From contig OY969472.1 in the NCBI GenBank assembly GCA_963700155.1, positions 517,059 through 581,058 of the forward strand: a DNA stretch of 64,000 nt, given 5' to 3'. Made by a program: the position numbers and the translations under genes. Shown here piece after piece: positions 3,057-61,971 of this stretch (position 1 is its first letter; the number at the start of each line of letters is the position of its first letter). The notes beneath the pieces are model-generated. The model made no database searches. It saw nothing but the letters and a program-made list of their open reading frames with translations, and had not been told where the DNA came from. This DNA comes from an uncultured bacterium. GTDB taxonomy: Bacteria; Patescibacteriota; Dojkabacteria; J137.

Positions 3057-4571
3057 TTAGTTGACGATGTCAACTCTATAGCTCAAAGCTTCAGCAATAT
3101 GTTTTTCTTCAACTTTTTTTAAACCTTCTAAGTCGGCAATTGTTCGGGCAACCCGAAGAATTCTAAAATATGATCTTGCTGATAAATTCATTTTCCTTAC
3201 AGCCATATCTAACAATTGCCGAGAAGATAAATCTAATTCTATATATTTGAAAATATCTTTTTGCTTAATTTCTGAATTAGAAAAGATATTTTCATTTTCA
3301 AACCTTCTTAATTGAATCTCTTTGGCTTTTTTAACTCTAACTTTAATTTTCTCAGAACATTCAGATTCCTTATTTTCAAATAACTTATTATTTTCAACTT
3401 TTGGTACATTTATTAAAAGATCTATTCTATCCAAAATTGGTCCTGAAATTCTTTTTTGATATTTGATAACTTCACCTTGAGTACAAGTACAATGCCTTAT
3501 TGGGTCACCTCTGTAACCACATTTGCATGGGTTCATTGCTGCAACTAAAGTAAAGCTTGCCGGAAAAGTTAAAGAAGCAGAGGCTCTAGAAATTGTTACA
3601 ACTTTATCTTCTAAAGGCTGTCTTAAAGCTTCTAAAGATTGAGAAGTAAACTCTGGAAATTCATCTAAAAATAAAATACCTCGATGAGCTAAAGATATTT
3701 CTCCAGGGCGGGGGATTGCTCCCCCGCCCACAAGAGCTACTTGAGAAGAAGTATGATGCGGCGACCTGAAAGGTCGCCGCAAAACCAATGGAGAATCTTT
3801 TAAAGTCATTCCCGCAACACTATATATTCTTGTAACTTCAAGTGATTCTTCCAATGTCATATCAGGTAGAATTGAAGGAAGACATTTAGAAAGTAAAGTT
3901 TTTCCAGAACCTGGAACTCCAGAAAGCAAAATATTATGACCACCTGCTGCAGCAATTTCCATGGCTCTTTTGGCATGTTCTTGACCTTTAACTTGTGCAA
4001 AGTCATATTCGTAATTTTCAATAACATTAGAATCAAGATCTTTTACTTTTGGTTTTATTCTAATAATTCCGCTGAAATGAGCAATTAATTCACTAAGAGT
4101 TTCGACTGGATAAATTTTTATTCCATCAACAAGACTTGCTTCATCAGCATTCTCAAATGGTATATACACTTCTTCGAAACCAAGATTTTTTATATGATCA
4201 ACAATAGGTAAAATTCCATGAACAGGCCTAAGCCTTCCATCCAAAGCTAATTCACCAATAAAAAGTTTCTTTTCTGTATCAATTTTTATCTGTTCCGAAG
4301 CAATTAAATATCCAATAGCTAATGGAAGGTCATAACTAGGACCTGTTTTTATTAATTCGGCGGGAGCTAAATTCATTATAATCTGCATAGGTATAAAGCT
4401 CCCGCCAGAATTTTTAATCGCCGAAGGGATTCTATCTTTAGCTTCTTGTATTGACTTATCTGCAAGGCCTACAATAGAGAAGAAGTTTGTACCTTTTCGA
4501 TAATCAACTTCAACTTCTACAATTTTACAGTCTAGACCTAAGAGAGTAGCGGTATATAATTTTGCCAACAT
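3057..4571 (-). CDS. comM: Mg-chelatase-like AAA+ ATPase YifB/ComM
   Basis: N-terminal Lon-like domain, Walker A (GVPGSGKT), conserved RRPFRSPHH…LVGGG…PRPGEISLAHRGILFLDEFPEF block. 504 aa. Confidence 0.85.
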   Translation of the reverse strand: MLAKLYTATLLGLDCKIVEVEVDYRKGTNFFSIVGLADKSIQEAKDRIPSAIKNSGGSFIPMQIIMNLAPAELIKTGPSYDLPLAIGYLIASEQIKIDTEKKLFIGELALDGRLRPVHGILPIVDHIKNLGFEEVYIPFENADEASLVDGIKIYPVETLSELIAHFSGIIRIKPKVKDLDSNVIENYEYDFAQVKGQEHAKRAMEIAAAGGHNILLSGVPGSGKTLLSKCLPSILPDMTLEESLEVTRIYSVAGMTLKDSPLVLRRPFRSPHHTSSQVALVGGGAIPRPGEISLAHRGILFLDEFPEFTSQSLEALRQPLEDKVVTISRASASLTFPASFTLVAAMNPCKCGYRGDPIRHCTCTQGEVIKYQKRISGPILDRIDLLINVPKVENNKLFENKESECSEKIKVRVKKAKEIQLRRFENENIFSNSEIKQKDIFKYIELDLSSRQLLDMAVRKMNLSARSYFRILRVARTIADLEGLKKVEEKHIAEALSYRVDIVN

Positions 4572-5348: not shown

Positions 5349-6563
5349 TTAAAAACTTAGCGTTGGGTCTCGATCGATTTGATCAAAATCTTTTAAATAA
5401 ATATTTTCTGAAGGATTATGTTTTATTTCTGAAATTTTTGAAAGCTTAACATTCGCAGCAACTGCAATCATAGCTGCATTATCTCCAGTCAATTTCTTTG
5501 AATATGGGAATCGCATTTTAATATTATTTTCTTTACAAATTACCCTAAATTCAGATCTCAATCTTGAACTAGCTATAACGCCGCCGCCAAGCCAAAGTTC
5601 TTTAGGTTGGTATTTCTGAATTGCTTTTCGAAGCTTGAACTTAAGCTGTTCAAGGGCGGCGGCTTCAAATACTACACACAAATCCATAATTTGTTCTTTT
5701 GTTAATCCGCCTTTTGATTTATCAGAATACAATCCTTCGATTTCTTCTTTGTGGCTTATAGTTTTGTTTAACAATTTCTCTACTAATTGCTTAAATGCTG
5801 TTTTTACTCCTGAATAACTGAAGTTTAAGTCACCAGATCTAATCATCGCTATCGGCAACATATATTCTGCTTTTGTATTTTTATTTGTACACTTTACTGA
5901 AGTACTTAGATTATCTTTAACAATTTCAATTTTCATATTTTTTCTTTGTCTTTTTGCAAATTCAGTAATAATCGGACCTGCAGGATATCCAAGTCCTAAA
6001 ATCCTTCCGCATTTATCATAAGCTTCTCCACATGAATCGTCTAAAGTTTCCCCTAGTTTTTCATATTCACCCCAGTTTTTTACAAGAATTAATTCAGTAT
6101 GGCTTCCAGAAACTAAAAAACCTAATGTTGGAAATTGCTGATCATTAACTTTGGTTTCAAAATCTAACTCTTTTAATTCTGATTTTCTCTCGGCGAAAGC
6201 TGAAAGAAGATGTCCTTCCATGTGATTTATTAAAATAAGTGGTTTATTATATTCAACACTCAAAGCTTTCGCCTTTTTAACTCCAATTTCTAAAGCTATT
6301 GCCAATCCTGGACCAATAGTTACTGCAACAGCATCAATATCCTTCATTTCTAAACCGGCTCTTTTCAAAGCTTCAATAACAACATTATCTATTCTTTCTG
6401 CATGTGCTAATCTTGCAAGATTAGGCACAACACCTCCATATTTTTTATGAAATTCCATTTGAGATGGCTGGACATTTGAAAGTACAGTAAAACCTCGGAC
6501 AACTGAAGCCGATGTTTCATCACAAGATGTATCTATTCCTAGTGTTAAAAAGTCTTTATGCAT
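5349..6563 (-). CDS. tsaD: tRNA N6-adenosine threonylcarbamoyltransferase TsaD/Kae1/Qri7 family
   Basis: LGIDTSCDETSASVV, GGVVPNLARLAHAERI, ASKH-fold metal-binding motifs, C-terminal GDNAAMIA. The likely start is the internal Met (MHKDFLTLGID) at 6563, whereas the ORF track extends to 6599. Confidence 0.85.
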   Translation of the reverse strand: MHKDFLTLGIDTSCDETSASVVRGFTVLSNVQPSQMEFHKKYGGVVPNLARLAHAERIDNVVIEALKRAGLEMKDIDAVAVTIGPGLAIALEIGVKKAKALSVEYNKPLILINHMEGHLLSAFAERKSELKELDFETKVNDQQFPTLGFLVSGSHTELILVKNWGEYEKLGETLDDSCGEAYDKCGRILGLGYPAGPIITEFAKRQRKNMKIEIVKDNLSTSVKCTNKNTKAEYMLPIAMIRSGDLNFSYSGVKTAFKQLVEKLLNKTISHKEEIEGLYSDKSKGGLTKEQIMDLCVVFEAAALEQLKFKLRKAIQKYQPKELWLGGGVIASSRLRSEFRVICKENNIKMRFPYSKKLTGDNAAMIAVAANVKLSKISEIKHNPSENIYLKDFDQIDRDPTLSF

Positions 6564-8765: not shown

Positions 8766-9641
8766 ATGAACTTAATAACCAGAGATAAAAAATTCATGAA
8801 TACAACAATCACCTTTAAAGTTGTTAAAGGTGATGTAACAACTGTAAAAACCCTAGATTCAATTGAAGCGGCTTTTGGTGAATTTGACAGAATTGTAAAA
8901 CAATATACAAGGTTTGATGAAAACTCTGAACTTTCAAATTTAAATAGAAATAGTGGTAAATGGGTCAAAGTTTCAAGCGAGTTTTTTTGGCTCATAGAAT
9001 ATATGCTTAAACTTGCCAAAAAAACTCGCGGTGCATTCGACCCAACAGTAATAGATTTTCTTGAAGTCTATGGCTATGATAAAAACTATGACTTCTCAAA
9101 ACTTAATAATCCAGAACTTGATAAATTAGTTGAAAAAATCAGTAAAACAAGAAAGTCATGGAAAGATGTTGAATTGAAGAAAAAGAGTAGCGAAGTAAAA
9201 TTGGCAAAGGTCCAAAAAATTGACTTAGGTGGAGTAGGTAAAGGATATGCAATAGATTGTGCTTTTGAAAAATTAAAACAAGTTTCAGATAATTTTCTTA
9301 TTGATGCTGGTGGAGATGTTAGAGCATCTGGCACTAATGAGAAGGGTGAATTATGGAAGGTTGGAATGAAAGATAGAGCAGGAGAAATTGAAGAATTAAT
9401 CGGATATATCGAGCTTAATAATGAAGCCCTCGCATGCTCTGGATCATGGTCTAGAAGAGTGAAACAGTTCCACCATCTTATAAACCCAGCGACTGGAGTT
9501 CCTCAAAATTATTATCGGACAGTTTTTGTTCAAGCTCCTGATGGAATTACTTCAGATTCATGGGCAACTGCAGTTTTTGTTTCGGGAGAAAATGACTTAA
9601 AAATTCCTGAAAATATGAAGATATTCAAAATAACTAATTGA
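8766..9641 (+). CDS. apbE: FAD:protein FMN transferase ApbE family
   Basis: IDLGGVGKGYAIDCAF matches the ApbE signature, and the length fits. The real start may be the Met at 8793. Confidence 0.7.
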   Translation: MNLITRDKKFMNTTITFKVVKGDVTTVKTLDSIEAAFGEFDRIVKQYTRFDENSELSNLNRNSGKWVKVSSEFFWLIEYMLKLAKKTRGAFDPTVIDFLEVYGYDKNYDFSKLNNPELDKLVEKISKTRKSWKDVELKKKSSEVKLAKVQKIDLGGVGKGYAIDCAFEKLKQVSDNFLIDAGGDVRASGTNEKGELWKVGMKDRAGEIEELIGYIELNNEALACSGSWSRRVKQFHHLINPATGVPQNYYRTVFVQAPDGITSDSWATAVFVSGENDLKIPENMKIFKITN

Positions 9642-10983: not shown

Positions 10984-11513
10984 GAATTTATTTTATCATT
11001 TTCAACTTTTTCATTAATCTTTTTCATTCTATGTCTTATGAAAGGATTTATTGTTGATATGAATATTATTTCAATAATCAATGCCGAAACTGGTACAAGA
11101 ATGATTACAGAAGATTCAATTACTGATAATCTCATATAGATTACTAGGCCTATTACAGCTGTTATAAGCACGGCCCTTCTTATTGAATTATAAAGAGATG
11201 GTGCATCATAATAACTTTTAAAAAACAACTTATCTAAAAACAAATGAAGGGCCGTGCAAAAACTTAAGATTGCTGCAAGAAATACTCCAAATGCAAGGTA
11301 TGTAACGTTCGTTAAATACTGAAATATCAAACCTTTATCAACTATTCCTCTAATAACTTCATTTAGCTTATCCCAATCTCCGGGATTTATGGCATTAGAA
11401 GTAATAAGTTCGTTAATTTTATTCGCATCGAATGGCGAAAATTCTTTTAGAATATATATTAATATTAAGGTAAAGAATCCTCCTAAAATTGTAAAAATCA
11501 AAGCATTTTTCAT
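10980..11513 (-). CDS. Hypothetical polytopic membrane protein
   Basis: Several hydrophobic helices. Overlaps the downstream gene by 4 nt. Confidence 0.4.
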   Translation of the reverse strand: MKNALIFTILGGFFTLILIYILKEFSPFDANKINELITSNAINPGDWDKLNEVIRGIVDKGLIFQYLTNVTYLAFGVFLAAILSFCTALHLFLDKLFFKSYYDAPSLYNSIRRAVLITAVIGLVIYMRLSVIESSVIILVPVSALIIEIIFISTINPFIRHRMKKINEKVENDKINS

Positions 11514-13201: not shown

Positions 13202-14431
13202 ATGTACAAAATTAATATGCGAAAAAAAATATTAATAAGCTTTATCTTTTTACAAGTTATTTTAATATTAGGCTCAGGTTTTGTAAGTGCTGATGATATT
13301 CAAAGCTTATCCACTCTTAATATTGACACTTCTATCACAGTAAAAGATACTACTGGTTTTGGAGATCCCACACAGATTATTGTTACTCCTGTTTTTATTA
13401 ATAATGGAACAGAAGTAAACACAGATAAATGGGTTAGAGGTATTTATTATTACACTATCGATAAATTAGGATTTCAAAACATTCCTTTTCATTATTTAAT
13501 TACAGAAGATGGTGGAGTTTTTAAAGGTAACAGCTCAGGTGATGAGAAAAAAATTAACATAGAAGGAATTGGCGATAATGCAGTTGTAGTTGGATATTTA
13601 AGTACAGATGAGGCGGGCGCTATAGCGCCCGCCTCAGAACAACCATTATCAAATCTGCTGCTAAATATAGCTAATCAAGATTCTATAAATCCTGAAAATA
13701 TATCAGCAAGTGGAATAAATTTTATTAAAGATAGTTCAAGCAATACAATAACAATTCAAAAAGCTAAAGTTGGGAGTGAGTGGAGTATAGGTATTAATAA
13801 AATTGTAAATAATATTAAAAATAAGTATTCTCCAATTACAAAAAAATATAGCGTTGAAATAACTCAGGTTACATTACCAACAAACGAAATAACACCTGGT
13901 GATGAAGCTACAGTCTCGATTAAAATAAAAAATACTGGTAAGAATGGATTTTATAGTGGTGCTAATTCTGAAATACTTTTAACAAAAGATAATGGAATTT
14001 CCAGCAACTTCTATATAAATAATACATGGCTCAGCCAAACTCAAACTGGAATAATGTCAGATGGTATATCTCTTCTCCCAGGTGAAGAAAAAGGGTTTGA
14101 TTTTAAAGTCAAAGCTCCACTGGCAACCGGAGATTATTCAGAAAACTTTATTTTGAAAACTGCAGGTGGAACTACTATAAAAAGTAACAAAAATATTGAG
14201 TTAAAAATTAAGTTAAAAAAAACTAATAAACAAATTATTGAGATAAAAACAAGCTATGATTATGTAAATGTAAGAAGCAAACCTTATGATTCAGCCCCTG
14301 TTTTAAGAAAAGTTACTGCAGGAGAAAGATATTTCCTTCTAGATCTAAATGAAGATACCCTTTGGGCAAAAATTGACTTAGGGGGTGGAGTAGAAGGTTA
14401 CCTTCCCGCTTGGGATTTGAAATATATTTAA
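13202..14431 (+). CDS. Secreted cell-wall-associated protein: PGRP/amidase_2-like domain plus C-terminal bacterial SH3 domain
   Basis: Signal peptide. GFQNIPFHYLITEDGGVFKG resembles the amidase_2 core, but the Zn-ligand His is not evident. C-terminal SH3b-like segment (YVNVRSKPY…GYLPAWDL). Confidence 0.45.
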   Translation: MYKINMRKKILISFIFLQVILILGSGFVSADDIQSLSTLNIDTSITVKDTTGFGDPTQIIVTPVFINNGTEVNTDKWVRGIYYYTIDKLGFQNIPFHYLITEDGGVFKGNSSGDEKKINIEGIGDNAVVVGYLSTDEAGAIAPASEQPLSNLLLNIANQDSINPENISASGINFIKDSSSNTITIQKAKVGSEWSIGINKIVNNIKNKYSPITKKYSVEITQVTLPTNEITPGDEATVSIKIKNTGKNGFYSGANSEILLTKDNGISSNFYINNTWLSQTQTGIMSDGISLLPGEEKGFDFKVKAPLATGDYSENFILKTAGGTTIKSNKNIELKIKLKKTNKQIIEIKTSYDYVNVRSKPYDSAPVLRKVTAGERYFLLDLNEDTLWAKIDLGGGVEGYLPAWDLKYI

Positions 14432-14442: not shown

Positions 14443-15930
14443 ATGCCAAAGGTAAAAATAATACTAATTATTGTTTTTGTGCTTTCTTTTTTTGTTAGTT
14501 TATTGCTTTTTCTAAAGTTTAATACTGTTGGATTTGAACAATCATTTAGGGCATATTTGGCATGGTATAACCCGACTGATGATAATTTAAAAAATTTCTA
14601 TGATATTTCGACTAGTCAAAATTTTTTATCTTCATTAAATTTTGAAAATCAGACTTTTAAAAACGGGACTGAATTGTTTGATTTCTTAAGGAATGAACAA
14701 AAGACAAACAATTCAGTCCCCGCAGTAGCTAAAGATAATCGAGACAGCAAAGTTCCAATTCAATTTGATGAAGAGAATATTGACGATACAAACCTTCCTC
14801 AGAAAATTACTTATGTATCACCTGGAGTTCTTGGATACTATGTATATAATTATGATCTAGTAAGATTCTCTCCTGATAAAAATACTCTTGAAAGCAAATA
14901 TTTAAATTTAAAAGAGAGTACTATTGATCCTATTTCAAAAAAGAATGTTACTGGTACAAAAGATTTAAAAACAGCAAAGACAGAAGTTAATAGTTATTTT
15001 AATAAACTTATAACTGATGTTGGCAATACAAACACATATGATGGCTTAACAAAAGAGAGTTTTAAAAAACTTGAAAACCACGAGGTTCTTGAAAATATTT
15101 CAGTTAATTCAATAAATTTTGTTGAAAAGAACTTTAAAGAAACTGAATTAAAAGATAACAAATTAATTATTGGAACGATAAATATTCACTTAGAAAACTG
15201 TTTTAAAGATTTTTCAGAAGATTTGAGTTTTTCTATCAATACCGGTGACATTCAAATTAATGACTTAAATGATTTTGTAAGTAACTTATGTAAAAAGCAA
15301 TTCGTTAAAGTTAATGGGGTAATTACCGGAACTTGTACTGATTGTACTTATTATCCAGCTGATAAATGGCATGCTTTAAGATCTGACTATACTCCCAAAA
15401 CTCAATTGATTGATTTCGCTCCGGGAGGACAATATATTAATACACAAGCATATAACGACTTTAAAGATTTATACAACGCAGCAAAAGCAGATGGAATATA
15501 TATTTATGTAACTTCAGGCTATCGTTCTTACAATACTCAAGTTGCGACATATCAAGGCTGGGTAAACACTGAACTTGCTGCTGGTTATTCTTTGTCTGAG
15601 GCAGAAGCTATTGCTAATACTTATTCAGCTCTTCCTGGGTACTCAGAGCACCAGCTTGGAACAGCGTTAGATTTAAATGGAGCAGGATGTGAAATTTCTG
15701 ATGGATATTGTTCAACAAACGAAACAATCTGGAACTGGCTTGCGGAAAATGCTTATAAATATGGGTTTGCACAATCATACCCTGAAGGAAAAGAGTCAAT
15801 TACAGGATATACCACCGAAAGGTGGCATTACAGGTGGATTGGGAAAGACTTAGCTGAAGAATATAAAAAAGCTGGAGGAGGAACAAAAATTACTTTAAAT
15901 GTATTTTTATTGAATAAAGGATTATATTAA
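14443..15930 (+). CDS. Membrane-anchored D,D-carboxypeptidase/peptidase M15 (VanY-like)
   Basis: N-terminal TM. C-terminal YVTSGYRSY…GYSEHQLGTALDL…W motifs fit the M15B Zn-peptidase family. Confidence 0.7.
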   Translation: MPKVKIILIIVFVLSFFVSLLLFLKFNTVGFEQSFRAYLAWYNPTDDNLKNFYDISTSQNFLSSLNFENQTFKNGTELFDFLRNEQKTNNSVPAVAKDNRDSKVPIQFDEENIDDTNLPQKITYVSPGVLGYYVYNYDLVRFSPDKNTLESKYLNLKESTIDPISKKNVTGTKDLKTAKTEVNSYFNKLITDVGNTNTYDGLTKESFKKLENHEVLENISVNSINFVEKNFKETELKDNKLIIGTINIHLENCFKDFSEDLSFSINTGDIQINDLNDFVSNLCKKQFVKVNGVITGTCTDCTYYPADKWHALRSDYTPKTQLIDFAPGGQYINTQAYNDFKDLYNAAKADGIYIYVTSGYRSYNTQVATYQGWVNTELAAGYSLSEAEAIANTYSALPGYSEHQLGTALDLNGAGCEISDGYCSTNETIWNWLAENAYKYGFAQSYPEGKESITGYTTERWHYRWIGKDLAEEYKKAGGGTKITLNVFLLNKGLY

Positions 15931-17583: not shown

Positions 17584-18666
17584 TTAATATCTATCCTTTC
17601 TATAACTCCAGAAATCTATAGCTCTATGTAGTAAATATCTTAAATTATCATTATAAATTTCCATTGGACCAACATAATTAATTTCCTTTCCACCAAAACT
17701 TCTCTTGAATTCAGAAACCCCATTCATAGGATTTTTTGCCTTCTTGTTTTCAGGTAAAGATTTAGGCAGAATTCCCCACATATTATATTTTCTGAAACCT
17801 TTTTCTTTAGCATATTTCATTATCTCCCACTGTAAAAAATATGGAGAGCGGAGCTTTGACATAGTTCTATCAGATGTAGAAGCTCCATGAGTATAATAAG
17901 CTGTTTCATTATAGTAATTAATCAAAGCTCCGCTAATATATTTGGCTCTATATCTTGCTAAGAATATATCCGTCATTCCTTTAGGATTCAATGCATCAAA
18001 CTGCTTTTTGAAATATTCAAAATCATAGTTTCCAAAACCTTTTCTTTGAGTAGTTTCATTCATCAAATCTGAAAAGGCTTTAACTTCTTCAATTGTAGTA
18101 GCTTTTACTAATTCTAGTTCACTTCTTGATGACCGATTTATATTATATCTGGTCGAATCGCTCATTTTCGAGCGCAACTCATCCTCATTTTGATCTAAAT
18201 CTAACTCCCAGACATCTTTAGCTTGAGCAGGGGCGAGGGATGTTTTAAAGCCTAAATTCTTTAAATTTTCACTATATTTTTTAGGGAGCAGTGGATCAAA
18301 TCTGAAAAGAGTAAGGAAATTTTGGAATATATAATCCTGCATAAAGTTTTTTAACTGTGTAAAAAAATCTGCAAATTCTTGTTCATTCATAGGATCACCA
18401 ACTATAACTGGTCCATATGGAACATAAGCATATTTTATAAATTTCCTTCTGTAAATTTCTATATATAAAATTCCTATTTCATATTCTCTGTCGCCAACTT
18501 CAAGGATAATAAAATATTGATCAATTTCTTTTCCTAATGATTTTTGAAAATCGATCCAATTAATTGAAGAAAGAAATGAAGAATTTTCTGCTTCTAAATT
18601 TATTTTTTCCCATATTTGTTTTTTATCTTCACTATATTTTTCAAATTTTAGTAGCACAGAAATCAA
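17584..18666 (-). CDS. FemAB-family peptidoglycan interpeptide-bridge aminoacyl transferase (second paralog)
   Basis: YNMWGILP…EFKRSFGG. 360 aa. In tandem with the previous gene. Confidence 0.65.
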   Translation of the reverse strand: MISVLLKFEKYSEDKKQIWEKINLEAENSSFLSSINWIDFQKSLGKEIDQYFIILEVGDREYEIGILYIEIYRRKFIKYAYVPYGPVIVGDPMNEQEFADFFTQLKNFMQDYIFQNFLTLFRFDPLLPKKYSENLKNLGFKTSLAPAQAKDVWELDLDQNEDELRSKMSDSTRYNINRSSRSELELVKATTIEEVKAFSDLMNETTQRKGFGNYDFEYFKKQFDALNPKGMTDIFLARYRAKYISGALINYYNETAYYTHGASTSDRTMSKLRSPYFLQWEIMKYAKEKGFRKYNMWGILPKSLPENKKAKNPMNGVSEFKRSFGGKEINYVGPMEIYNDNLRYLLHRAIDFWSYRKDRY

Positions 18667-19396: not shown

Positions 19397-20542
19397 TTAA
19401 GCATCTCTTCTTAGAGGCATTAGAAGGTGAACAAATTTTGAATCATCTTTATCTTTAAAAACTGAAGCTGCCAATGGACCTTTAGTTTCAAAGATTATGG
19501 TGTCTCCTTTTATATGACTGACAACATCAGATATATATCGTAAATTGTAAGAAGCATTCAAATCACTTTCTCCATTTACAGAAGTCACTGGAATTAAAGT
19601 TTGATTTTCACCAACTTCAGCTACTACAGATTGCAACATAACAGTTGCGTTTTCTAGGTTGAGGTCAAAAAGTGTTTTGTATCCTAAATTACTTCTAGCA
19701 AAAGTATTAATGATCCTAATCGCAGATTCCAAATCTGACTTTTTGACCTCAAATGAATAGCTGAAAGAATCAGGCATTATCCTTTTATAATCAGGATAAG
19801 GTCCCTCTAATAATCTTATGCTGAATTCTATCTCTTCAAATTTAAAAATAACTTGGGATTTACTTTGACCTAAATAAACTTCAATACTATCAACATCAAC
19901 ATAATCTTGAATAATTTTAACCAATTCGCTTAAATATCTTGCCGGAACAATAACTTGTTCTGTTGGATATTCATTAACATCTTTTACTTTTGCACTACGC
20001 TTTGAAAGTCTAAAACCATCTAAACCAATAAAATTGATCTCACTTTTTTCTTTATCATATTCAAATAAAATTCCACTTTGCTGTATTTTTCCAGCTGATA
20101 AATCTGTTGATGAAGCAAAAATTACTTTATCCATTGATGCTAAAAATTCCTTTGCTGAAATTACAAACAGTGGAGTTTCTGAAACTTCTGGTAAAACAGG
20201 GAATTCGGTTGCCGGGATAGTAGTAAAATTAGCTTTTGAGTTTTCTGTTACAACATCTACTACATTATCATTCAAACTTAGTTCAACGTTATCTCCTACT
20301 GCTGCTGCAACAAAATCTGCAATGTATTTTGCTGATACAGTAACGCTTCCTTCTTGTTCAACTACTCCAGGTATCCACACATTTATCCCCATATCTAAGT
20401 TTGTTGCTGATAGTTTTAAACCATTCTTATTAACATCTAAAAGAACGTTTGAAAGTACTGGTATATTTGGTTTTAAACTAACAGCTCTACTTGTATATTG
20501 TAATGACTTTGAAAGGTTATCTCTGTTTAGTTTGATTTTCAT
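19397..20542 (-). CDS. dnaN: DNA polymerase III beta sliding clamp
   Basis: N-terminus MKIKLNRDNLSKSLQYTSRAVS…PVLSNVLL is typical DnaN. Three-domain length of 381 aa. Confidence 0.85.
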   Translation of the reverse strand: MKIKLNRDNLSKSLQYTSRAVSLKPNIPVLSNVLLDVNKNGLKLSATNLDMGINVWIPGVVEQEGSVTVSAKYIADFVAAAVGDNVELSLNDNVVDVVTENSKANFTTIPATEFPVLPEVSETPLFVISAKEFLASMDKVIFASSTDLSAGKIQQSGILFEYDKEKSEINFIGLDGFRLSKRSAKVKDVNEYPTEQVIVPARYLSELVKIIQDYVDVDSIEVYLGQSKSQVIFKFEEIEFSIRLLEGPYPDYKRIMPDSFSYSFEVKKSDLESAIRIINTFARSNLGYKTLFDLNLENATVMLQSVVAEVGENQTLIPVTSVNGESDLNASYNLRYISDVVSHIKGDTIIFETKGPLAASVFKDKDDSKFVHLLMPLRRDA

Positions 20543-20856: not shown

Positions 20857-21795
20857 ATGTTTAATCCTATAGACAATTTAAAATTAAAAGAAGTTGAAAA
20901 TTCAGAAAATAAAACTATTGGAGAAATTGCACAGAAACTTTCTAATTTAATGAGTAATAAATATTTTTTTTACTTTTTTTCTTCTCATTATCACTCTCCA
21001 CAATTAGATATTCATAGAGTTGATGACTTAAATTCTTTTTTATATAAATTTAAAGGTGTTTTTAGAGACATGAGTTCCTATCTTAAAAAGGATAAGGATT
21101 TTATAAATCTATTTCTTGAATTATTAAATTTTTTAGTTAAAGAAAAAGAATTTTATGAAGCTGTTAAATTACTAGATGAAACATTTGGATTTAATTTTCT
21201 ACACTATGAATGGATACAAGAAATTTATAAAAAAGCAATGGATTCTGAAGAGTATTTCCAAGCTTATTACATAATAAAATTAATTGAAAATAGAATTAAG
21301 TTGTTAATGATTACATTTCCAAATGATTCACCACAAGAACTTTTAGAAAAAGAGTATAGAGAATGTTTAGGAATTTTATTGAATAACTTTCTTGATGATA
21401 CTTCTGCAATAACTGAAAGTGAATTATTCGAAAAAACAAAAACATTACCGAAAATTTTAGCAATATTGAAGAATGATGAAATACTAGGTTTTAATATTTT
21501 GAAATCTCGAGACTATACTCCATATTTCATGGATATAATTTTATATGATTTTATTAAAAGAATTGTAGATTTAACTTGGACATTTAGAGGTGAAATATAT
21601 GATATACAATTTGATTCTGAAAATTTGCCTGACATATATTATCTTTATAATATTTCTACAAATACTAGTAAGTATCTTACATTACCAGAAAATAAAATGG
21701 TTCATATTTCACGAGTGGCTGAATATTTAGAACTAAAATTAAAAGATATTGAGTTCATTTTTATTGAAGATAAAAAGCAAGATGTGGAATCTTAA
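20857..21795 (+). CDS. Hypothetical protein (312 aa) inserted between dnaN and dnaA
   Basis: ORF only. No motif recognised. Confidence 0.4.
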   Translation: MFNPIDNLKLKEVENSENKTIGEIAQKLSNLMSNKYFFYFFSSHYHSPQLDIHRVDDLNSFLYKFKGVFRDMSSYLKKDKDFINLFLELLNFLVKEKEFYEAVKLLDETFGFNFLHYEWIQEIYKKAMDSEEYFQAYYIIKLIENRIKLLMITFPNDSPQELLEKEYRECLGILLNNFLDDTSAITESELFEKTKTLPKILAILKNDEILGFNILKSRDYTPYFMDIILYDFIKRIVDLTWTFRGEIYDIQFDSENLPDIYYLYNISTNTSKYLTLPENKMVHISRVAEYLELKLKDIEFIFIEDKKQDVES

Positions 21796-21800: not shown

Positions 21801-22523
21801 TTAATTTTCTAAACTACTATAATATGGTGTTTTTTCTAGTAATTCTGGAGGTAGAATAGATAATAAAGATAAATCATTATTAATTCTATAATCATATAGA
21901 TAAATATTATAGGAATCTGTATTCAAACCGTCTTTTCTGTATCGAATATATATATCAATGTGTGCAAGTTTTAAAGTTCCATCAAGATCAAGTTCTTCTG
22001 TAAAAATAAACTTAACTTGCTCAATATTTTCTTCATTGACTCCTATTTTGTAGTTATCAACAAAAAATTTTTTTACAGCTGGAGTAAATCTGGCTGAATA
22101 TTCTACGACCTTAAAGCCATGTATATTAGTATTATTCTTATCTATAAGCTCATGAATTTGGTTTAAAGTAGTAACATTAATAATAGCTGGCTCGAAAAAA
22201 ACTCCTTCTGTATCTGTTTGTTCAATAATTAATGATCCATTTTCGTCAAATTTAAAAACAGCTAGATTATTTCCAAAATAATACTCAAAATGAATATCAG
22301 AAATTGTTAAATCTGAATTCATCTCGCTCCTAGATAAATTTATTTCTCTATAAAGTATATTAAAAAGGGTATATTGAGTTGTCGGCAGTTTAAAAGATTT
22401 TCGAAAATCTACGCCTGACGAAGCTATTCCAGATAAAATACTTAAAATTAAATAAAGAGATAATATCCTTTTTAGAATAAAAGGACGGTTAAAATTGTTT
22501 TGAATATCATCAATTTTATCCAT
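21801..22523 (-). CDS. Hypothetical membrane-anchored protein immediately downstream of dnaA
   Basis: N-terminal TM helix. Lies 5 nt after the dnaA stop. Confidence 0.4.
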   Translation of the reverse strand: MDKIDDIQNNFNRPFILKRILSLYLILSILSGIASSGVDFRKSFKLPTTQYTLFNILYREINLSRSEMNSDLTISDIHFEYYFGNNLAVFKFDENGSLIIEQTDTEGVFFEPAIINVTTLNQIHELIDKNNTNIHGFKVVEYSARFTPAVKKFFVDNYKIGVNEENIEQVKFIFTEELDLDGTLKLAHIDIYIRYRKDGLNTDSYNIYLYDYRINNDLSLLSILPPELLEKTPYYSSLEN

Positions 22524-22528: not shown

Positions 22529-23938
22529 TTATTCTACATCCTCCGTTACAGCGGCATTATCTTGAATATTTGTTATTACTTGTGCAACTTGAGAATTAAA
22601 TCCATCCTGAATCATCATTTTGCTTTTAATCTTATCAAGTGCATGAAGCACAGTTGTATGATCAGTCCTTTTTAAATATTTTGCGACTTCTTCAAGTTTA
22701 TAACTAAATTCTTCTCTTAAGATATACATTGCAACTTGTCTTGCCAAAGCCAACTCCTTTGTTCTTCTCGGACCTTTTAAATCTTTTACAGTAACGCCAA
22801 ATGATTTAGCAACTTCTCTAATAACTTGAGGCACTTTAATCTGGGATCTTTTTGTTTGCGAATCTTTTCCAATTGTATGTGCAACTTCTTCTAATGTTAA
22901 ATCTCCATTCGGTTTCATTTGATTAAATAAAGCTACTTTTTGAAGTGCCCCTTCAAGCTCTCTTACATTATCCGAAATATTTCTAGCCAAGTACTCTAAA
23001 ATTGGCATTTTTAAATTATAGCCGGAGTTTTCAGATTTTCTGTATAAGATTGCAAGGCGAGTTTCATAATCCGGATTTGAAATATCAACTACCATCCCGC
23101 CTTGCATTCTAGTTCTTAATCTACTTTCCATATTTTGAATATCCTCAGGTCTTCTATCGGCAATTAAAATAATTTGTTTACCAGCATTATAAAGTTCATT
23201 GAAAGTATTGAAGAATTCTTCTTGAGTGTGAACCCATTTTGAAATAAGTTGCATATCATCAATAATAAGCATATCCGTTGGTCTATATTTAGCTCTAAAT
23301 TTCTCCATTTGCCCTGTTTTAATTCCTTTTACCATCTCATTCAAAAATCCTTCAGATGGTGTATAAATTATTTTTTTACTAGGATTCCTTTCTAAAATTG
23401 ATCTACCAATTGCTTGTGCCAAGTGTGTTTTCCCAACACCGGTTTTCCCATGAATAAATAAAGGATTGTATGATTGACCAGGTCTTTCAATAATTGCTAA
23501 AGCTGCAGCATGTGCAATTTTATTTGCATTTCCTACAATATAATTTGACATTGTATATTTAGGATTTAATCCGGATTTAGTAACAGCTTCAATTACATTA
23601 CCCATAAATCCATTCTCAACATCAAGTAAAGGTGAGGATGATATATTTTTTGGTTCATTTTCAGCTTCATCTTCTTTTTGTTCATGAGTAACTTCAAAAA
23701 CTGGATTTAAAACATCTCCATAAACATAACTAATTGTGTCTTTAATCATTTTTTCGTATCTATTTTTTATCCAATCAGAAATGAAGGGATTAGGTACTCC
23801 GATTATTGCTTTATTACCATCTATTTTAACTAATCTAGTTTCTTGAAAATATGTTTTAAATTGAGCAGGTGCGTCCAGTTTAATCTCTATTTGAGCTAGG
23901 GTCGTTTTCCAGAGCTGTTTTTCATCTCTAATTTTCAT
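22529..23938 (-). CDS. dnaA: Chromosomal replication initiator DnaA
   Basis: AAA+ Walker A/B (GKTGVGKTHL, DDMQ), C-terminal DnaA-box binding helix. The likely start is the internal Met (MKIRDEKQLWKTTLAQ), whereas the ORF track extends to 23992. Confidence 0.9.
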   Translation of the reverse strand: MKIRDEKQLWKTTLAQIEIKLDAPAQFKTYFQETRLVKIDGNKAIIGVPNPFISDWIKNRYEKMIKDTISYVYGDVLNPVFEVTHEQKEDEAENEPKNISSSPLLDVENGFMGNVIEAVTKSGLNPKYTMSNYIVGNANKIAHAAALAIIERPGQSYNPLFIHGKTGVGKTHLAQAIGRSILERNPSKKIIYTPSEGFLNEMVKGIKTGQMEKFRAKYRPTDMLIIDDMQLISKWVHTQEEFFNTFNELYNAGKQIILIADRRPEDIQNMESRLRTRMQGGMVVDISNPDYETRLAILYRKSENSGYNLKMPILEYLARNISDNVRELEGALQKVALFNQMKPNGDLTLEEVAHTIGKDSQTKRSQIKVPQVIREVAKSFGVTVKDLKGPRRTKELALARQVAMYILREEFSYKLEEVAKYLKRTDHTTVLHALDKIKSKMMIQDGFNSQVAQVITNIQDNAAVTEDVE

Positions 23939-24020
23939 AGGTTTAAAGTAATGGTTAAAGAATATATACTTAAATGAAATAAGTATTTGCAAAAGCTATT
24001 TTTTTAGTGCTGAATTTTTT

Positions 24021-24112: not shown

Positions 24113-24349
24113 ATGTTTAAATCAATTGCAAAATTTTTAATAAAAACTTACCAGAAATTGTTTTCTTTCGATCACTCTTTTTGGGCGTCTTGGGTTGGAA
24201 TGCCTGTTTGCAGGTTTACACCAACATGCTCACAATATACTTATGAAGCTATTGATAAGTACGGGGTTTTTAAAGGAAGTTTTATTGGGTTTAAAAGAAT
24301 TTTAAGGTGTAATCCTTTTACAAAAGGCGGGTATGATCCGGTTCCTTAA
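24113..24349 (+). CDS. yidD: Membrane protein insertion efficiency factor YidD
   Basis: 78 aa with the conserved …[15 protein letters not shown]…G… pattern. Confidence 0.8.
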
Positions 24350-25131
24350 GAAATTCCTTTAAAAACCCCTACCTCATCATTATTTATAGAAACTATATCT
24401 ACTTTAAATCTTTTAGAAGCTTTTATTAACTCAGTTTTATAAGTTAGTTTTGAAACATAATCTTCTAAAGATTTCAAAATTCCTAAATCTTTACCAATTA
24501 TGATGTATTCTTTTCCATTTATTTTATTATCTGCTGCTCCAAATTTATTTCTTTTCTTATGATCAGGACTTCTTTTTATTAGTAAAGCATTCTTGTTTCT
24601 TAAATTAAATTTTTGATTAAAAAACGAATCACTATCTTTAAATCTAGATTCCCAAGATTGATCACCTTTGGAAACTATGATGTTGGGCAGATTAATTTCA
24701 TAATCCTTTATCTTTTCTTCTGATAAATAATTTTTTAATAATTCAAGAATATACACACTTCTTAAAAAACTTGTATCTAGCTTAAAATTTTTAAGTTTAA
24801 TTATATTTCCGTGTTTTATATCCCCTTTGTAATACTTCCTAATATTAATACCGGATTGGATATTTGTTGGGTTAAATATGTTAGAAAAATACTGGTAAAA
24901 ATCGATATTATATTCTAAAAAATCTATAAACTCCTTTTTAAGATAGATTGGTATATTTGTTTGTGCTGAGTTAAATTTTTCTGCAGATGAATTTTTAACA
25001 TTATGATTTAATTCTGATAAAAATTCATCCAAAATAAAATGAATATTCTTTAAATGTTTTTGCTTTACCTCTTTATTTGTTTTTAATTTTAAAACTCTTG
25101 GGCCAAAATCAATTAAATACTCGTAAATCAT
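24346..25131 (-). CDS. Hypothetical protein (261 aa)
   Basis: ORF only. Confidence 0.4.
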
Positions 25132-26809: not shown

Positions 26810-29023
26810 ATGGCAAGAAGAAAAAAACATATAACTTACGATAGTAAAGAAACACATACAATAGTCGGTTTAATCAGTTTTTTGCTTGGAATATTTTTTA
26901 TATTATCTCTAGTATCAGGGACAGAAAATACAAATAATTTATTTGCTCAGGCAAAAACTCTTTTTGGAGATTCTACAATAATAACTGCTCTATTTTTAAT
27001 TTCATTAGGATTGTCTTTTTTAGGGGTTGAATTACCATTCACAAAAAAAAGCAGTTTAATTTTTCAAGGTGGATTGATTTTTTTGATACCAGCTTTAATA
27101 ACATCACTCTCTTCAACACCAAGAGAATTAGTTAGAAGCGCTGATACTTTAGGTGGAATGGTAGGTTATTTTATTGTAAATACAGTACTTGGTGATACTA
27201 TACCTACTCAACCTGCGACTAAATTTATTCTACTTTCCTTAACTGTAATTTTTGTTCCACTAGCATTATCAATGTCAATAAGTGAATTGATTGACAAGAT
27301 AGCAATGTTTATAGGATGGCTTATTAATTTTATAAAATCAAACTCTGATGTTGAACAAGGAGAAGAAGAACCTAAAGCAACAAATTTTGGTGATTTCAAT
27401 AAATTGTTGAAAGAAAAGCAAATGTTGGAAGAGCAAAACAGGGAATTATTGAAAATGGATAAAAAACCTGAAGAAAAAATGCATCTTCCAGTAAGAGGAG
27501 AAGGCGCTAATATCTCTATCAAAGAAGGTGCAATTGGAGAAGATGGTTTAACACAGACAGCATTAAGATTTTCAAACTGGCAGCTTCCACCACTAAGCTT
27601 ATTGATTCCTTATAAAAAAAGTACAAATAAAGAGCCTGCAATTACTCAAAACGGACAAATTATAGAACAAATTTTATCTAGCTTTGGAATTGAAGCCAAA
27701 GTTGAAGATTCTTATGTAGGGCCATCTGTTATTCAATATGCGTTAAATATTCCACTAGGTGTAAAAGTTGAAAAAATTTCAAACTTAAGTGCAAATGTAG
27801 CACTAGCACTTGGAGTCGATTCGAAAGCAGTTCGAATCGACTCCATTCCAGGTACAACATATTTAGGTATTGAAGTTCCTAGAAGCAAAAGAGATATGGT
27901 AAGGATAAAAGAATTGATGGAATCACCACAGATGATGGATTCTAAAATGGAACTTCCTGCTCCTATAGGTAAAAATATTGATGGATCTGCAGTTATTACT
28001 GATATAAAAAAGATGCCTCATTTGCTTATTGCTGGAGCAACGGGCTCAGGAAAATCTGTTTTGACGAACTCTTTTATTGTTTCACTTTTACTTAAAAAAA
28101 CTCCTGATGAGGTAAGGCTTATTTTAGTTGATCCAAAGCAAGTTGAACTTTCAGACTATAATGGAATTCCACATTTATTAACTCCTGTTATTACAGACAT
28201 GGATCATGTTTTAAATGCTTTGAAATGGGCAGTAGGCGAAATGCAGAAAAGATATAATGTTCTTGCTAAAGAACAGGTAAGAAATATTGAAGGATACAAT
28301 CAAAAAAAAGGTTTTGCTTCAATGCCATATATTGTTATTGTAATTGATGAAATGGCTGATATGATGATGACTGCAAATAGAGTAGAGACTGAGACTGCAA
28401 TAGTAAGATTAGCTCAAAAAGCTAGAGCAGTAGGTATTCACTTAGTTCTCGCTACCCAAAGGCCTTCTGTAAATGTTATTACGGGTATTATTAAAGCTAA
28501 TATTCCAGGCAGAGTTGCTATGAGTGTAGCAAGTAGTACAGATTCAAGAGTTATTCTAGATAGAATTGGAGCAGAAAGCCTTCTTGGTTATGGAGATTTA
28601 TTGTACAAGGCTCCAGATAGTCCTAAGTCTATAAGGTTGCAAGGGTCTTTTGTTGACCAGCAGGAAGTTATCAGGGTTGTTGATTTCATTAAATCACAAG
28701 CTCCTGAGGTTGAATATGTAAATGAGATTATTGAGAAACAGGTGCAACCTGGAGAGGAAGCTATCGGCAATGGTGGTTTAAGTAGTATTTCTGAGGATAA
28801 TCTTCTTGAACAAGCGATTAGAATAGTTGTTCAAAATCAAAAAGGTTCCTCATCTTATTTGCAAAGAAGATTAAATATTGGATTTAATAGAGCAGCTAGA
28901 CTTCTTGAAGAACTTGAAGAGGCCGGGGTGGTTGGTCCTCCTAATGGTAGCAAGCCTAGAGAAGTTCTTGTTAGTGATGCTGATGCATTTATTGCAAGCT
29001 TAAAAAATACTTCACCTGAGTAA
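26810..29023 (+). CDS. ftsK: DNA translocase FtsK/SpoIIIE
   Basis: N-terminal TM segments, motor domain (GATGSGKSV, Walker B) and C-terminal gamma winged helix (…SYLQRRLNIGFNRAARLLEELE…). Confidence 0.9.
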   Translation: MARRKKHITYDSKETHTIVGLISFLLGIFFILSLVSGTENTNNLFAQAKTLFGDSTIITALFLISLGLSFLGVELPFTKKSSLIFQGGLIFLIPALITSLSSTPRELVRSADTLGGMVGYFIVNTVLGDTIPTQPATKFILLSLTVIFVPLALSMSISELIDKIAMFIGWLINFIKSNSDVEQGEEEPKATNFGDFNKLLKEKQMLEEQNRELLKMDKKPEEKMHLPVRGEGANISIKEGAIGEDGLTQTALRFSNWQLPPLSLLIPYKKSTNKEPAITQNGQIIEQILSSFGIEAKVEDSYVGPSVIQYALNIPLGVKVEKISNLSANVALALGVDSKAVRIDSIPGTTYLGIEVPRSKRDMVRIKELMESPQMMDSKMELPAPIGKNIDGSAVITDIKKMPHLLIAGATGSGKSVLTNSFIVSLLLKKTPDEVRLILVDPKQVELSDYNGIPHLLTPVITDMDHVLNALKWAVGEMQKRYNVLAKEQVRNIEGYNQKKGFASMPYIVIVIDEMADMMMTANRVETETAIVRLAQKARAVGIHLVLATQRPSVNVITGIIKANIPGRVAMSVASSTDSRVILDRIGAESLLGYGDLLYKAPDSPKSIRLQGSFVDQQEVIRVVDFIKSQAPEVEYVNEIIEKQVQPGEEAIGNGGLSSISEDNLLEQAIRIVVQNQKGSSSYLQRRLNIGFNRAARLLEELEEAGVVGPPNGSKPREVLVSDADAFIASLKNTSPE

Positions 29024-29451: not shown

Positions 29452-30215
29452 AAGTTTTAGACCAAGAAACAAAATTTGCACATTTAGGAAAGCCTGGGAC
29501 AGCTTTTACTCCTGGGTTTCAACGTAGATTGGACATGATAACTAAACTTGTTGATTTTAAAGATAAAAAAATTCTTGATCTAGGTTGTGGTGAAGGGGTG
29601 TGGCTTTCAAAGTTTGCAGAATTTACAAGTCCGGAAAATATTTATGGAAGTGAATATGATGGGGAGCAGGTTCAGTCTTTGAAAGCCACACCTTTAAAAA
29701 CTTCAAAAGGAGAAATCCCTTCAGAAAATATTGTTCAATGTCCAGGAGAAGATTTAGCATTTGAAGATAATTTTTTTGATATAGTTTTTCAAAATGAAGT
29801 TCTTGAACATGTGCAGGATGATGTTCAAACTTTAAAAGAATCATTAAGAGTTTTAAAACCAGAAGGAAAGTTAATAATTTTTACTCCAAATCGGGGCTGG
29901 CCTTTTGAACAGCACGGAATGTTTCTTAATGGAAAATATTATTGGGGTAACATTCCACTACTGCCTTGGATGCCAGCCCCGATTTATAAAAAGTTCGCAC
30001 CTCATGTCCGAAATTATTCTAATGGTGTGTTAAAACAAAAAATAAAAGAAGCTGGCGGAAAGATTGTTTATCATACTCATATATTCCCAGGGTTTGATGG
30101 AGCAGTTAGAAGGTTTGGGATTTTAGGGAAAATTCTTCAGAAATTTTTCTTTGTCCTTGAAAAAACACCTCTAAATTTCTTCGGAATTAGCCATCTCGTT
30201 ATTATCACCAAATGA
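29442..30215 (+). CDS. Class I SAM-dependent methyltransferase
   Basis: Motif I ILDLGCGEGVW, motif post-II, and LKPEGKLIIFTPN. Confidence 0.7.
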   Translation: MFMKVLDQETKFAHLGKPGTAFTPGFQRRLDMITKLVDFKDKKILDLGCGEGVWLSKFAEFTSPENIYGSEYDGEQVQSLKATPLKTSKGEIPSENIVQCPGEDLAFEDNFFDIVFQNEVLEHVQDDVQTLKESLRVLKPEGKLIIFTPNRGWPFEQHGMFLNGKYYWGNIPLLPWMPAPIYKKFAPHVRNYSNGVLKQKIKEAGGKIVYHTHIFPGFDGAVRRFGILGKILQKFFFVLEKTPLNFFGISHLVIITK

Positions 30216-47810: not shown

Positions 47811-48800
47811 TTACTGATTTAGGTTTAAGTTAACCCAAGTATTAAAGACATCTAAGGAATTATTTTTTGGATCAATTAACCCAGTGGTTTTAAAGGGTTT
47901 AGGATAATTATTTGAGTCATACAAAAATGGCCAGATAATGAATTTCATATGTAATGATTTTGATAAATTCGGGATCATCTCTACATACTTGATTTGTTCT
48001 TCTGCAGAACTTTCCCATCCAGAAATTCCTTCATCTTTAAACCATGCAGTTTCTGTAATTGCAATTGGCTTATCTGTTTTTGCAGAAATAACGCTCCAAT
48101 AATCTGAAGGAATTTCTGACGGATCTTTATAAATTAATCCTGGATAAGTTGTAAATGCTAAAAAATCAGCATTATCAAATTTTGATAATATTTCCCATTG
48201 TGTTTTTGTTTCATCATTTACTCCACCAAATAATCCGCCGTTTAAGCCTTTAAGATTTTCATATTGAAACACTGTGAATATCTGAGTCTCAGGACTTGTT
48301 GTTTTTACTAATTCATAAAGCTGGTTAAACCATGTGCTGAATCTATCTAAGTCACCTGATAACTCTTTATTAATTTCATTTCCGAATCCAAGATATTTAG
48401 GATTATATGTTTTCACAAATTGAACAATTGCTTTGTTATATTCATTTTCTTGTATAAGTGAAGGGATCTCTTTAACACCGATAATAATTACCGGGGTTAA
48501 GTTGTATGAAGGAGCGGCTTTCATTAAGAAAGCCGCTCCTGAGTTCTCATCTAAAATGTCAGAAATATTTCCTGCCCAAGATACTACTTTGCAGCATTCT
48601 TTTGTTTTTGTAAAGAAATCGTCAATTCCAGATTGACTATAATCATTAGGTGATAAACTAAGTCCTTTTTGAGTTGATTCTGAAGTATTTTGAACTAAAT
48701 TTGAATTTCTGCTATTTAAGAATAATCCAATTATTAAAACAATAATTAGACTAACAACAAGGATTCCAATAAAGATTGAGATTAATAATTTCTTATTCAT
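47811..48800 (-). CDS. Membrane-anchored TIM-barrel glycoside hydrolase-like protein (GH5-like NE…/…TE motifs)
   Basis: GFGNEINKE (candidate acid/base) and ITETAW (candidate nucleophile). Start placed at the internal Met (MNKKLLISIF…) so the gene does not overlap the tRNA. Confidence 0.4.
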   Translation of the reverse strand: MNKKLLISIFIGILVVSLIIVLIIGLFLNSRNSNLVQNTSESTQKGLSLSPNDYSQSGIDDFFTKTKECCKVVSWAGNISDILDENSGAAFLMKAAPSYNLTPVIIIGVKEIPSLIQENEYNKAIVQFVKTYNPKYLGFGNEINKELSGDLDRFSTWFNQLYELVKTTSPETQIFTVFQYENLKGLNGGLFGGVNDETKTQWEILSKFDNADFLAFTTYPGLIYKDPSEIPSDYWSVISAKTDKPIAITETAWFKDEGISGWESSAEEQIKYVEMIPNLSKSLHMKFIIWPFLYDSNNYPKPFKTTGLIDPKNNSLDVFNTWVNLNLNQ

Positions 48801-48887
48801 TTTAGAAAATATGATACTACTAACTATACTCAGTGTGATCTTTAAGATCAAACTTTCACAATGGTATAATCTTTTTGCAGTATTTAT

Positions 48888-48961
48888 GTACCCATAGCTC
48901 AACTGGATAGAGCACTACTTTGCGGAAGTAGCGGTTGGAGGTTCGACCCCTCTTGGGTACA
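48888..48961 (+). tRNA. tRNA-Arg (anticodon GCG by hand-folding)
   Basis: 7-bp acceptor stem gtaccca/tgggtac, D-loop with A20, anticodon stem ctact/agtag with loop ttGCGga, T-loop ttcgacc, discriminator A73. No encoded CCA. Confidence 0.75.
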
Positions 48962-61710: not shown

Positions 61711-61755
61711 TAACTTCAAATTGATATAATTATCCATAGATAAAGGAGAAAAATA

Positions 61756-61971
61756 ATGACTGCAAAGCAGTTGACAACAATCTCTGGCTTAATTATAGCT
61801 GGTAGTGGTCTATATATGTTGATTTTGTGGGGCTCAATCCCATACTCAGCCTCAGCATTAATTGCAGGATTAGGATTACTTATAGGTGGGCTGATTATTA
61901 CATTTTTAGATCAGATCATTTGGATTCTAGTCAAAATCGGATTAATCGAGGATGATGAAGATTCTGAATGA
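61756..61971 (+). CDS. Small 2-TM membrane protein (71 aa) with acidic tail
   Basis: Strong RBS aaaggag about 9 nt upstream. A hairpin terminator follows. Confidence 0.4.
   Translation: MTAKQLTTISGLIIAGSGLYMLILWGSIPYSASALIAGLGLLIGGLIITFLDQIIWILVKIGLIEDDEDSE

Follow-up and report, generated by a model that had tools for sequence, protein, structure and literature searches.

How a GC-rich, perfect palindrome came to lie in frame within a gene of AT-rich composition is the question raised by a locus on contig OY969472.1 of an uncultured bacterium of the Dojkabacteria. The analysis covered a 64-kb stretch of this 1.14-Mb genome, here called the window, together with orthologous loci in relatives, labelled L001–L029, the related loci being annotated as metagenome-assembled genomes (MAGs) of Candidatus Dojkabacteria or Saccharibacteria (Patescibacteria, or candidate phyla radiation, CPR). 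As reported in a first-pass annotation, positions 13610-13635 read gaggcgggcgc-tata-gcgcccgcctc; since tata is its own reverse complement and the bordering t and a form a further pair, the element extends to a perfect palindrome of 28 nt (13609..13636, assigned to neither strand), with 14-nt arms TGAGGCGGGCGCTA and TAGCGCCCGCCTCA and a spacer of zero or, drawn as a hairpin, with a 12-bp stem and a TATA loop. The difference in composition described there was equally borne out, 10/11 bases of the 11-bp arm being G or C (10/12 counting the T:A pair) in a gene of 31% GC, within a window of ~30% GC throughout. The palindrome is most likely a template-switch (quasi-palindrome) copy, tolerated in a variable surface loop of the encoded protein.

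The host gene (13202..14431, + strand) encodes a protein of 409 aa with a signal peptide, a PGRP-like domain, an Ig-like middle portion and a C-terminal SH3_3 domain, and its stop lies 795 nt beyond the palindrome. The codons across the palindrome, gat gag gcg ggc gct ata gcg ccc gcc tca gaa, encode D136-E146 (DEAGAIAPASE), the palindrome itself corresponding to D136-S145. This peptide had been placed between the PGRP-like and the downstream domains; it falls instead within the PGRP-like domain, because both the AlphaFold (AF2) model and the PGRP profile matches (PDB profiles, E = 4e-5) span the site. In the model (pLDDT 81) a strand (127-134) is followed by a loop (135-142) and a helix (143-160), with residues 136-145 making up the loop and the N-cap/first turn of the helix.

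Site DNA was taken from 23 species-representative genomes, three Logan contigs and L029, and a codon alignment was built of 25 orthologous loci plus L029; in the protein database, 13 homologs of the host protein were found, the nearest 53% identical. The palindrome had been thought to look like an inserted structured element, and an ortholog alignment had been proposed to see whether it is an indel. In the codon alignment no gap occurs at the site, which has the same length in all orthologs, and the inserted-element reading therefore fails. Neither the palindrome nor a DEAGAIAPASE-type peptide is present in any of the aligned orthologs, all of which use AT-rich codons at the site; against L002 and against L003 the palindrome shows 18/28 differences each, with zero gaps. 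L001 belongs to the same organism (13,425/13,425 nt identical) and, its DNA being 100% identical, adds no independent sample. As judged from the alignment, the palindrome replaces part of a variable stretch without changing its length. The left arm (13609..13622, +; gaT GAG GCG GGC GCT Ata, D-E-A-G-A-I) looks the more ancestral, with its A-G-x-I found also in ortholog L029 (NAGSI), a weak indication of polarity, and is the putative template; the right arm (13623..13636, +; aTA GCG CCC GCC TCA, I-A-P-A-S) would be its derived reverse-complement copy, standing in place of an ancestral stretch of equal length.

The codon anatomy of the palindrome follows from its register, in which codon position 1 pairs with position 2 and the third with the third. 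Because of this pairing, the peptide E-A-G-A-I-A-P-A-S is self-complementary at positions 1 and 2 (GA/TC, GC/GC, GG/CC, GC/GC, AT), the codon partners being E-S, A-A, G-P, A-A and I, and five third-position pairs complete the palindrome through rare G/C-ending codons. Indeed, the codons GCG, GGC, GCG, CCC and GCC each have a usage of 6-9%, and the joint probability of the codons used, given the peptide and the codon usage of the window, is 1.9e-8; the probability of a perfect palindrome given the peptide is 4.7e-3, mainly via A/T third positions. The suggestion of a selected hairpin made of Ala codons and their complements is therefore correct as to the anatomy (Ala, Gly, Pro, Glu and Ser codons with complementary first two bases) but finds no support as to "selected", the hairpin being absent from every ortholog and part of a genome-wide excess of perfect coding inverted repeats with a templated-looking evolution. 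The family has no such Ala-rich peptide otherwise, which suggests that the DNA drove the peptide and not the reverse.

Template switching could produce such a replacement in a few steps. During DNA synthesis the growing 3' end would leave its template and pair with a nearby complementary sequence, located either on the nascent strand folded back or on the opposite strand at the fork, and about a dozen bases would be copied there before the return to the template. An equal length of gene would be overwritten in this way by the reverse complement of the neighbouring arm, in the present case probably from left to right. Such events would concentrate on strings of rare GC-rich codons, which the copy doubles, because G+C-rich seeds pair best. 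The result would be tolerated because the site, a surface loop and helix cap within the PGRP-like domain, is variable and because IAPAS keeps the frame open, and perfect repeats would then be restored by further rounds of template switching more quickly than point mutations accumulate in them. Several features of a template switch are displayed by the palindrome, namely perfect arms in cis at short distance, a length-neutral change and an abrupt end of the complementarity.

A search for further palindromes of this type had also been recommended, and the scan of the 64 kb found many perfect inverted repeats, each with a sequence of its own. With arms >=12 nt and spacers <=160 nt, 24 were observed against 2.5 expected from synonymous-codon shuffles, which were made within each of 67 genes and preserve the proteins and the codon usage, and no more than 5 occurred in any of 40 shuffles; for arms >=14 nt the figures are 14 and 0.33. 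Compared with dinucleotide shuffles, and with spacers <=40 nt, 9 repeats were observed against 0.5 for arms >=12 nt, and 5 against 0.03 for arms >=14 nt. A chance origin of the excess is effectively refuted by these shuffles. Perfect direct repeats showed no excess in the window (4 versus 3.3 expected), a control that, together with the synonymous shuffles, rules out an artefact of codon structure or low complexity.

Thirty of the 33 inverted repeats are intragenic, at scattered positions in unrelated housekeeping genes, among them those for ComM, TsaD, ApbE, DnaN, FemAB, FtsK, a Mur ligase, DnaJ, ArgRS and PcrA, and the intragenic repeats are distributed 10:10:10 over the three codon-phase classes. 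The G+C content at third codon positions (GC3) of the arms is mostly 0.4-0.86, versus 0.195 overall, and complementarity falls to chance directly beyond the arms (outer 6 nt). Imperfect versions are few and AT-rich; their 29 mismatches include 2 G.T and 3 A.C, so that no excess of G.T was found among the mismatches of the imperfect repeats, which are too few for a strong test. The excess of inverted repeats is common to L002, L003 and L013, most other Dojkabacteria loci being near background; OZ246402.1 and AP024679.1 are examples of repeat-poor genomes.

The close pair L002/L003 was used to polarise the changes by which repeats form. In L002/L003 and in L013 new repeats are length-neutral substitution clusters, placed in the clearest cases mainly on one arm, which thereby becomes the reverse complement of its partner, as expected of template-switch mutation. 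The YdjM gene of L002 (7255-7290) carries a perfect hairpin with a 16-bp stem and a 4-nt loop which, compared with L003 and the window, arose without indel through 7 changes on one arm, including the double-nucleotide changes F>I, V>I and L>A, and 2 on the other. At L002 12378-12437 the variable arm changed from GHSRA to GRTQA and is now the reverse complement of the conserved PGFSEH arm, and at L013 12158-12216, compared with L012 and L020, the same relation holds between a variable arm and one carrying a conserved motif. Within the window, a VanY-like gene holds 16-nt arms with a spacer of 24 nt (14665..14720, +), in which the EFYDLD of relatives has become TNNSVP without indel in the 3' arm (KTNNSVP); this arm is now perfectly complementary to the conserved one over ELFD. 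In these four cases (L002 7255, L002 12378, L013 12158 and window 14665) it is clear that one arm is ancestral and the other a derived copy; the direction of the derived arm relative to the replication strand is mixed in the ~5 polarisable cases.

Once formed, the repeats turn over between lineages. Those of L002 with an L003 ortholog are retained in 6/14 cases, and those of the window are retained in L002 in 3/10. In the retained repeats the arms have diverged by 5% versus 19% for spacers and flanks between L002 and L003, and by 1% versus 28% between the window and L002, the summary figures being 3-5% for arms and 19-29% for their surroundings; a compensated change of a G:C/A:T pair is seen at L002 11995 / L003 7221. 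The few, AT-rich imperfect repeats without G.T excess, together with the high turnover between lineages, favour a process acting at the DNA level, and a similar argument was made for the coding palindromes of Nematomorpha (PMC6649704).

This picture is in accordance with several described systems. Template switching at quasi-palindromes has been characterised at hotspots in Escherichia coli thyA and lacZ (Ripley model; PMC7202029), and a template-switch model has been put forward for the enriched and conserved perfect short inverted repeats of Proteobacteria (PMC5941160). Common to these systems and the present one are the perfecting of an imperfect repeat by a templated copy, multi-nucleotide changes without change of length, and repeats that are over-represented and, in Proteobacteria, better conserved than their surroundings. 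In contrast to both, the repeats found here are overwhelmingly coding, belong to a CPR bacterium of 30% GC, have strongly GC-enriched arms and show discrete, lineage-specific spacings, the process here being a putative one read from sequence comparison. Template switching also yields coding multi-nucleotide changes in yeast (PMC8604942), and it creates and maintains RNA hairpins (PMC8794818); the likeness lies in the replacement of several adjacent amino acids, in perfect stems formed in one step and in compensatory changes without selection. Those events were polarised on dense phylogenies, whereas the main palindrome is without a close relative, and the density found here (24 versus 2.5 expected per 64 kb) appears unusually high beside them, on a non-quantitative comparison. 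Nematomorpha mitochondria carry perfect inverted repeats in conserved coding sequence which are either perfect or absent and are gained and lost dynamically between species, and for which active maintenance, such as template switching, was favoured over function (PMC6649704). Their arms reach 284 bp and show a codon-phase preference, unlike the 10-20-nt arms of the present bacterial repeats, with phases of 10:10:10 and preferred spacer lengths.

Several observations weigh against template switching as the origin of the palindrome. Its ancestral state is beyond reconstruction, with the nearest ortholog 53% identical in protein and the sole other copy, L001, identical, and its polarity rests on the weak similarity to L029. 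The left, or source, arm already holds the rare codons gaG gcG ggC (joint probability ~5e-4 given the peptide), and rare codons in the source arm are not explained by template switching alone; the same applies to the high GC3 of the arms in general, the GC enrichment of source arms being only partly explained. Moreover, discrete spacer classes are not a described property of template switching, several repeats have changed on both arms, so that several events or selection are needed, and selection for pairing would account just as well for the conservation of arms and the compensatory change. On balance a template switch is still the probable source of the main palindrome, which would then share its origin with the sister repeats and have no function of its own.

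Selection for pairing would mean that both codons and variable residues have been recruited to build a hairpin useful either in single-stranded DNA or in mRNA, where it might affect stability, processing by RNase or the pausing of ribosomes. This explanation is rather unlikely, even if it accounts for part of the data. The palindrome is very stable, at -28.8 kcal/mol as folded RNA (z = -6.3) and -17.7 kcal/mol as folded DNA (z = -6.7), its rare G/C-ending codons stand exactly at the pairing positions, and the arms of the sister cases are conserved well above the synonymous background, with compensatory change; a ComM hairpin over RRPFRSP is common to the window and L002, and an EAEAIASA palindrome to L012 and L020. 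A maintained hairpin is, however, difficult to reconcile with the absence of the palindrome from all orthologs and with the lineage specificity of most repeats, of which the 3/10 retained in L002 are the measure. The stems are all-or-none Watson-Crick, with no G.U tolerance and no bulged extensions, the genes concerned are unrelated, with repeats at scattered positions and in all codon phases, and it is hard to see what loops of 60-140 nt would serve in an RNA; a U-tract and an Rfam match are both absent. At gathering thresholds, Rfam returned only two tRNAs in the window and no family match for the palindrome. A conserved cis-regulatory RNA would be expected to have a structure shared across orthologs, with covariation and tolerated G.U pairs; the palindrome is absent from all orthologs, and the mismatches of the imperfect repeats show no G.T bias. 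As for an intrinsic (Rho-independent) terminator, the palindrome has the GC-rich perfect stem and the 4-nt loop of one but lies inside an ORF; this candidate was rejected, as the terminator scan made no call at the palindrome and no U-tract comes after it, the next sequence being gaacaaccatta.

A GC-rich island in an AT-rich gene could also have come from outside, either as an in-frame palindromic mobile element or as a horizontally acquired foreign GC-rich patch, and an identical 26-mer shared with a contig of ~62% GC (L028) may be taken in favour of this. We consider such an origin very improbable. Rickettsia palindromic elements and yeast mitochondrial GC clusters, which likewise put GC-rich or palindromic sequence in frame into genes of AT-rich genomes, are insertions of a repeated mobile family. 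The palindrome, on the contrary, shows no indel against 25 or more orthologs and belongs to no family: no second copy exists in the 64-kb window, where its 9-mer core (<=1 mismatch) matches only ComM repeat arms and one unrelated site, and every other repeat of the window differs in sequence. The Rickettsia elements are mentioned also in the Nematomorpha study (PMC6649704). Elsewhere, the exact 22-mer core is found only in two unrelated metagenome contigs, L027 (1030-1051) and L028 (11010-11031), and it had zero matches among viral contigs. In both contigs the core forms an ordinary, intergenic terminator-like hairpin, in genomes unrelated to the present one, which argues for a generic stable hairpin reached by convergence, with which the number of matches is compatible; a repeat family or a transfer was rejected on these grounds. 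The GGCGC core said to be shared with hairpins at 61987 and 62397 does exist, but is only a 5-mer, and both of those hairpins are intergenic.

That the palindrome is a protein-binding or enzyme site (dif-like 11-6-11, parS-like near the origin, an operator or a restriction-modification target) is hardly more credible. With dnaA (22529..23992) at a distance of ~10 kb, dnaN at ~6 kb and the minimum of the cumulative GC skew nearby, the host gene is so placed that 28 bp of perfect symmetry would suit a site of this kind; the sequence of the palindrome is nevertheless unique and unconserved in orthologs, the dozens of other repeats are all different and, to our knowledge, it resembles neither the parS nor the dif consensus. 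The proposed link with restriction-modification found no support, GCGC occurring at a normal frequency (18 observed versus 23.1 expected) and no restriction-modification Pfam family being present among the 28 of 67 window ORFs scanned. Finally, a chance palindrome from an Ala/Gly/Pro-rich peptide, whose positions 1 and 2 are automatically self-complementary (with the 4.7e-3 above), can be set aside as extremely improbable, given the 1.9e-8 of the actual rare-codon set, a peptide that is novel compared with orthologs and the 14 versus 0.33 repeats with arms >=14 nt.

The spacers of the repeats fall into classes which differ between lineages. In the window, 13/33 repeats have a spacer of 62-79 nt (binomial P versus uniform 3e-5), located at 949-1057, 3133-3222, 6192-6273, 11168-11257, 17847-17934, 19659-19752, 24263-24369, 29597-29692, 29888-29985, 39572-39662, 39705-39800, 48020-48118 and 56336-56434; further classes are 0-5 nt, to which the main palindrome belongs, 19-32 nt and 115-141 nt. 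In L002 and L003 together 15/36 repeats have a spacer of 55-68 nt (P 1e-7), and in L013 12/15 have one of 29-42 nt (P 7e-11). We know of no description of such a spacing ruler. Single-strand DNA-binding protein (SSB) tetramers have footprints of 35, 56 and 65 nt on single-stranded DNA, and the spacer classes lie near these values and near twice 65; a cause in SSB or replisome geometry is speculative and, were it true, the spacing would reflect how the replisome, or a lagging-strand template coated with SSB, is arranged when the strands are switched. It is conceivable, though we advance it only tentatively, that some Dojkabacteria lineages (those of the window, L002/L003 and L013) possess an unusually active, genome-wide inverted-copy process that rewrites coding sequence and has a physical ruler. 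Such a process would parallel, in bacteria, the coding palindromes of Nematomorpha mitochondria, and would amount to a mutational engine for bursts of adjacent amino-acid changes and for GC-rich hairpins in a CPR genome.

Among the sister repeats of the window, the ComM gene (3057-4571, - strand) alone accounts for six perfect inverted repeats, starting at 3133, 3244, 3248, 3706, 3757 and 4359, built from the otherwise rare codons cgg, cga, cgc, ccc, ggc and ggg; two of them stand on its most conserved motifs, RRPFRSPHH and VGGGAIPRPGE. The repeat at 3706..3729 (-), GGGCGGGGG/CCCCCGCCC over VGGGAIPRP, is found in the window only, its third positions being set to complement fixed second positions. 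That at 3757..3781 (-), GCGGCGACC/GGTCGCCGC over RRPFRSP, is identical in L002, the other 12 orthologs using AT-rich aga/cca codons, and that at 4359..4406 (-), GGCGGGAGCT/AGCTCCCGCC with a 28-nt spacer, has an arm one base off the core of the main palindrome.

The ApbE gene has 15-nt arms with a spacer of 23 nt (8977..9029, +); L002 holds a precursor-like state with 12/15 pairs, which the window changes, on both arms, make perfect and extend. In a FemAB gene, 13-nt arms with a spacer of 62 nt (17847..17934, -) are present in the window and in L002, with 0/26 differences in the arms and 16/62 in the spacer, and in L003 with 12/13 pairs and one arm difference. The dnaN gene carries 15-nt arms on the conserved motifs FEVKK and LFDLN, with a spacer of 64 nt (19659..19752, -), of which L002 and L003 have 7/15 pairs. 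A methyltransferase gene has 16-nt arms with a spacer of 64 nt (29597..29692, +). Short-looped hairpins occur in the FtsK gene (27811..27845, +; 15-bp stem, 5-nt loop) and inside ORF 47811..48902 (48510..48540, -; 13-bp stem, 5-nt loop). The repeat at 24263-24369, with 16-nt arms GGGGTTTTTAAAGGAA and a 75-nt spacer, occupies intergenic DNA upstream of dnaA and extends into the following ORF; being near the cumulative GC-skew minimum, it may lie in the oriC neighbourhood.

Comparable palindromes are found at other loci. At L012 5098-5121 and L020 5212-5233, an abhydrolase-like gene includes the conserved GC-rich palindrome AGCGGAGGCTAT(A/C)GCCTCCGCT, coding for EAEAIASA, whose centre gct-ata-gc (A-I-A) is the same as that of the main palindrome; the L013 counterpart encodes the near-identical peptide EAESIASA through codons ending in A/T, with a stem of no more than 6 bp. 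A further perfect GC-rich palindrome of 28 bp, GTAGGGGCAAGTCGCGACTTGCCCCTAC, immediately precedes the start of tsaD in another Dojkabacteria MAG (L008 3896-3923). Downstream of pcrA/uvrD the window has three intergenic hairpins, at 61987-62010 (11-bp GC stem), at 62397-62446 (10-12-bp GC stem with a 30-nt loop, then a T-run) and at 62681-62757 (a long hairpin, with only sub-threshold miRNA-like Rfam matches), and a permissive Rfam search of 61650-62800 gave only sub-threshold noise. These may be terminators or an undescribed small RNA, and are unrelated to the main palindrome beyond their GC-richness.

As to gene order, dnaN and dnaA are separated in the window by two ORFs with no Pfam match (20857..21795, +, and 21801..22523, -) and adjoin each other in L002. 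Between the FemAB genes, L002 (14629-16038) and L003 (9418-9849) have a DCD/dUTPase gene, followed in L002 by the gene of an HMUDK_hel-domain protein and in L003 by an ORF with no Pfam match; the window has neither a DCD/dUTPase nor an HMUDK_hel gene at the FemAB position. The HMUDK_hel family is linked to thymidine hypermodification.

Taken on its own, and if template switching is its origin, the palindrome amounts to a mutational scar that a surface loop could tolerate. The wider meaning concerns the CPR lineage in which it stands, where housekeeping genes appear to receive their perfect GC-rich inverted repeats from a templated process rather than from point mutation, a process exchanging as many as 5-6 neighbouring residues in one event and afterwards keeping the arms matched. 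In comparative analyses such templated events would pass for positive selection, for compensatory evolution or for "conserved RNA structure", and the repeats that they leave would inflate the apparent structure signals of AT-rich genomes. The discrete spacing, if it holds genome-wide, would let the geometry of the replication fork be read from nature in organisms beyond the reach of culture.

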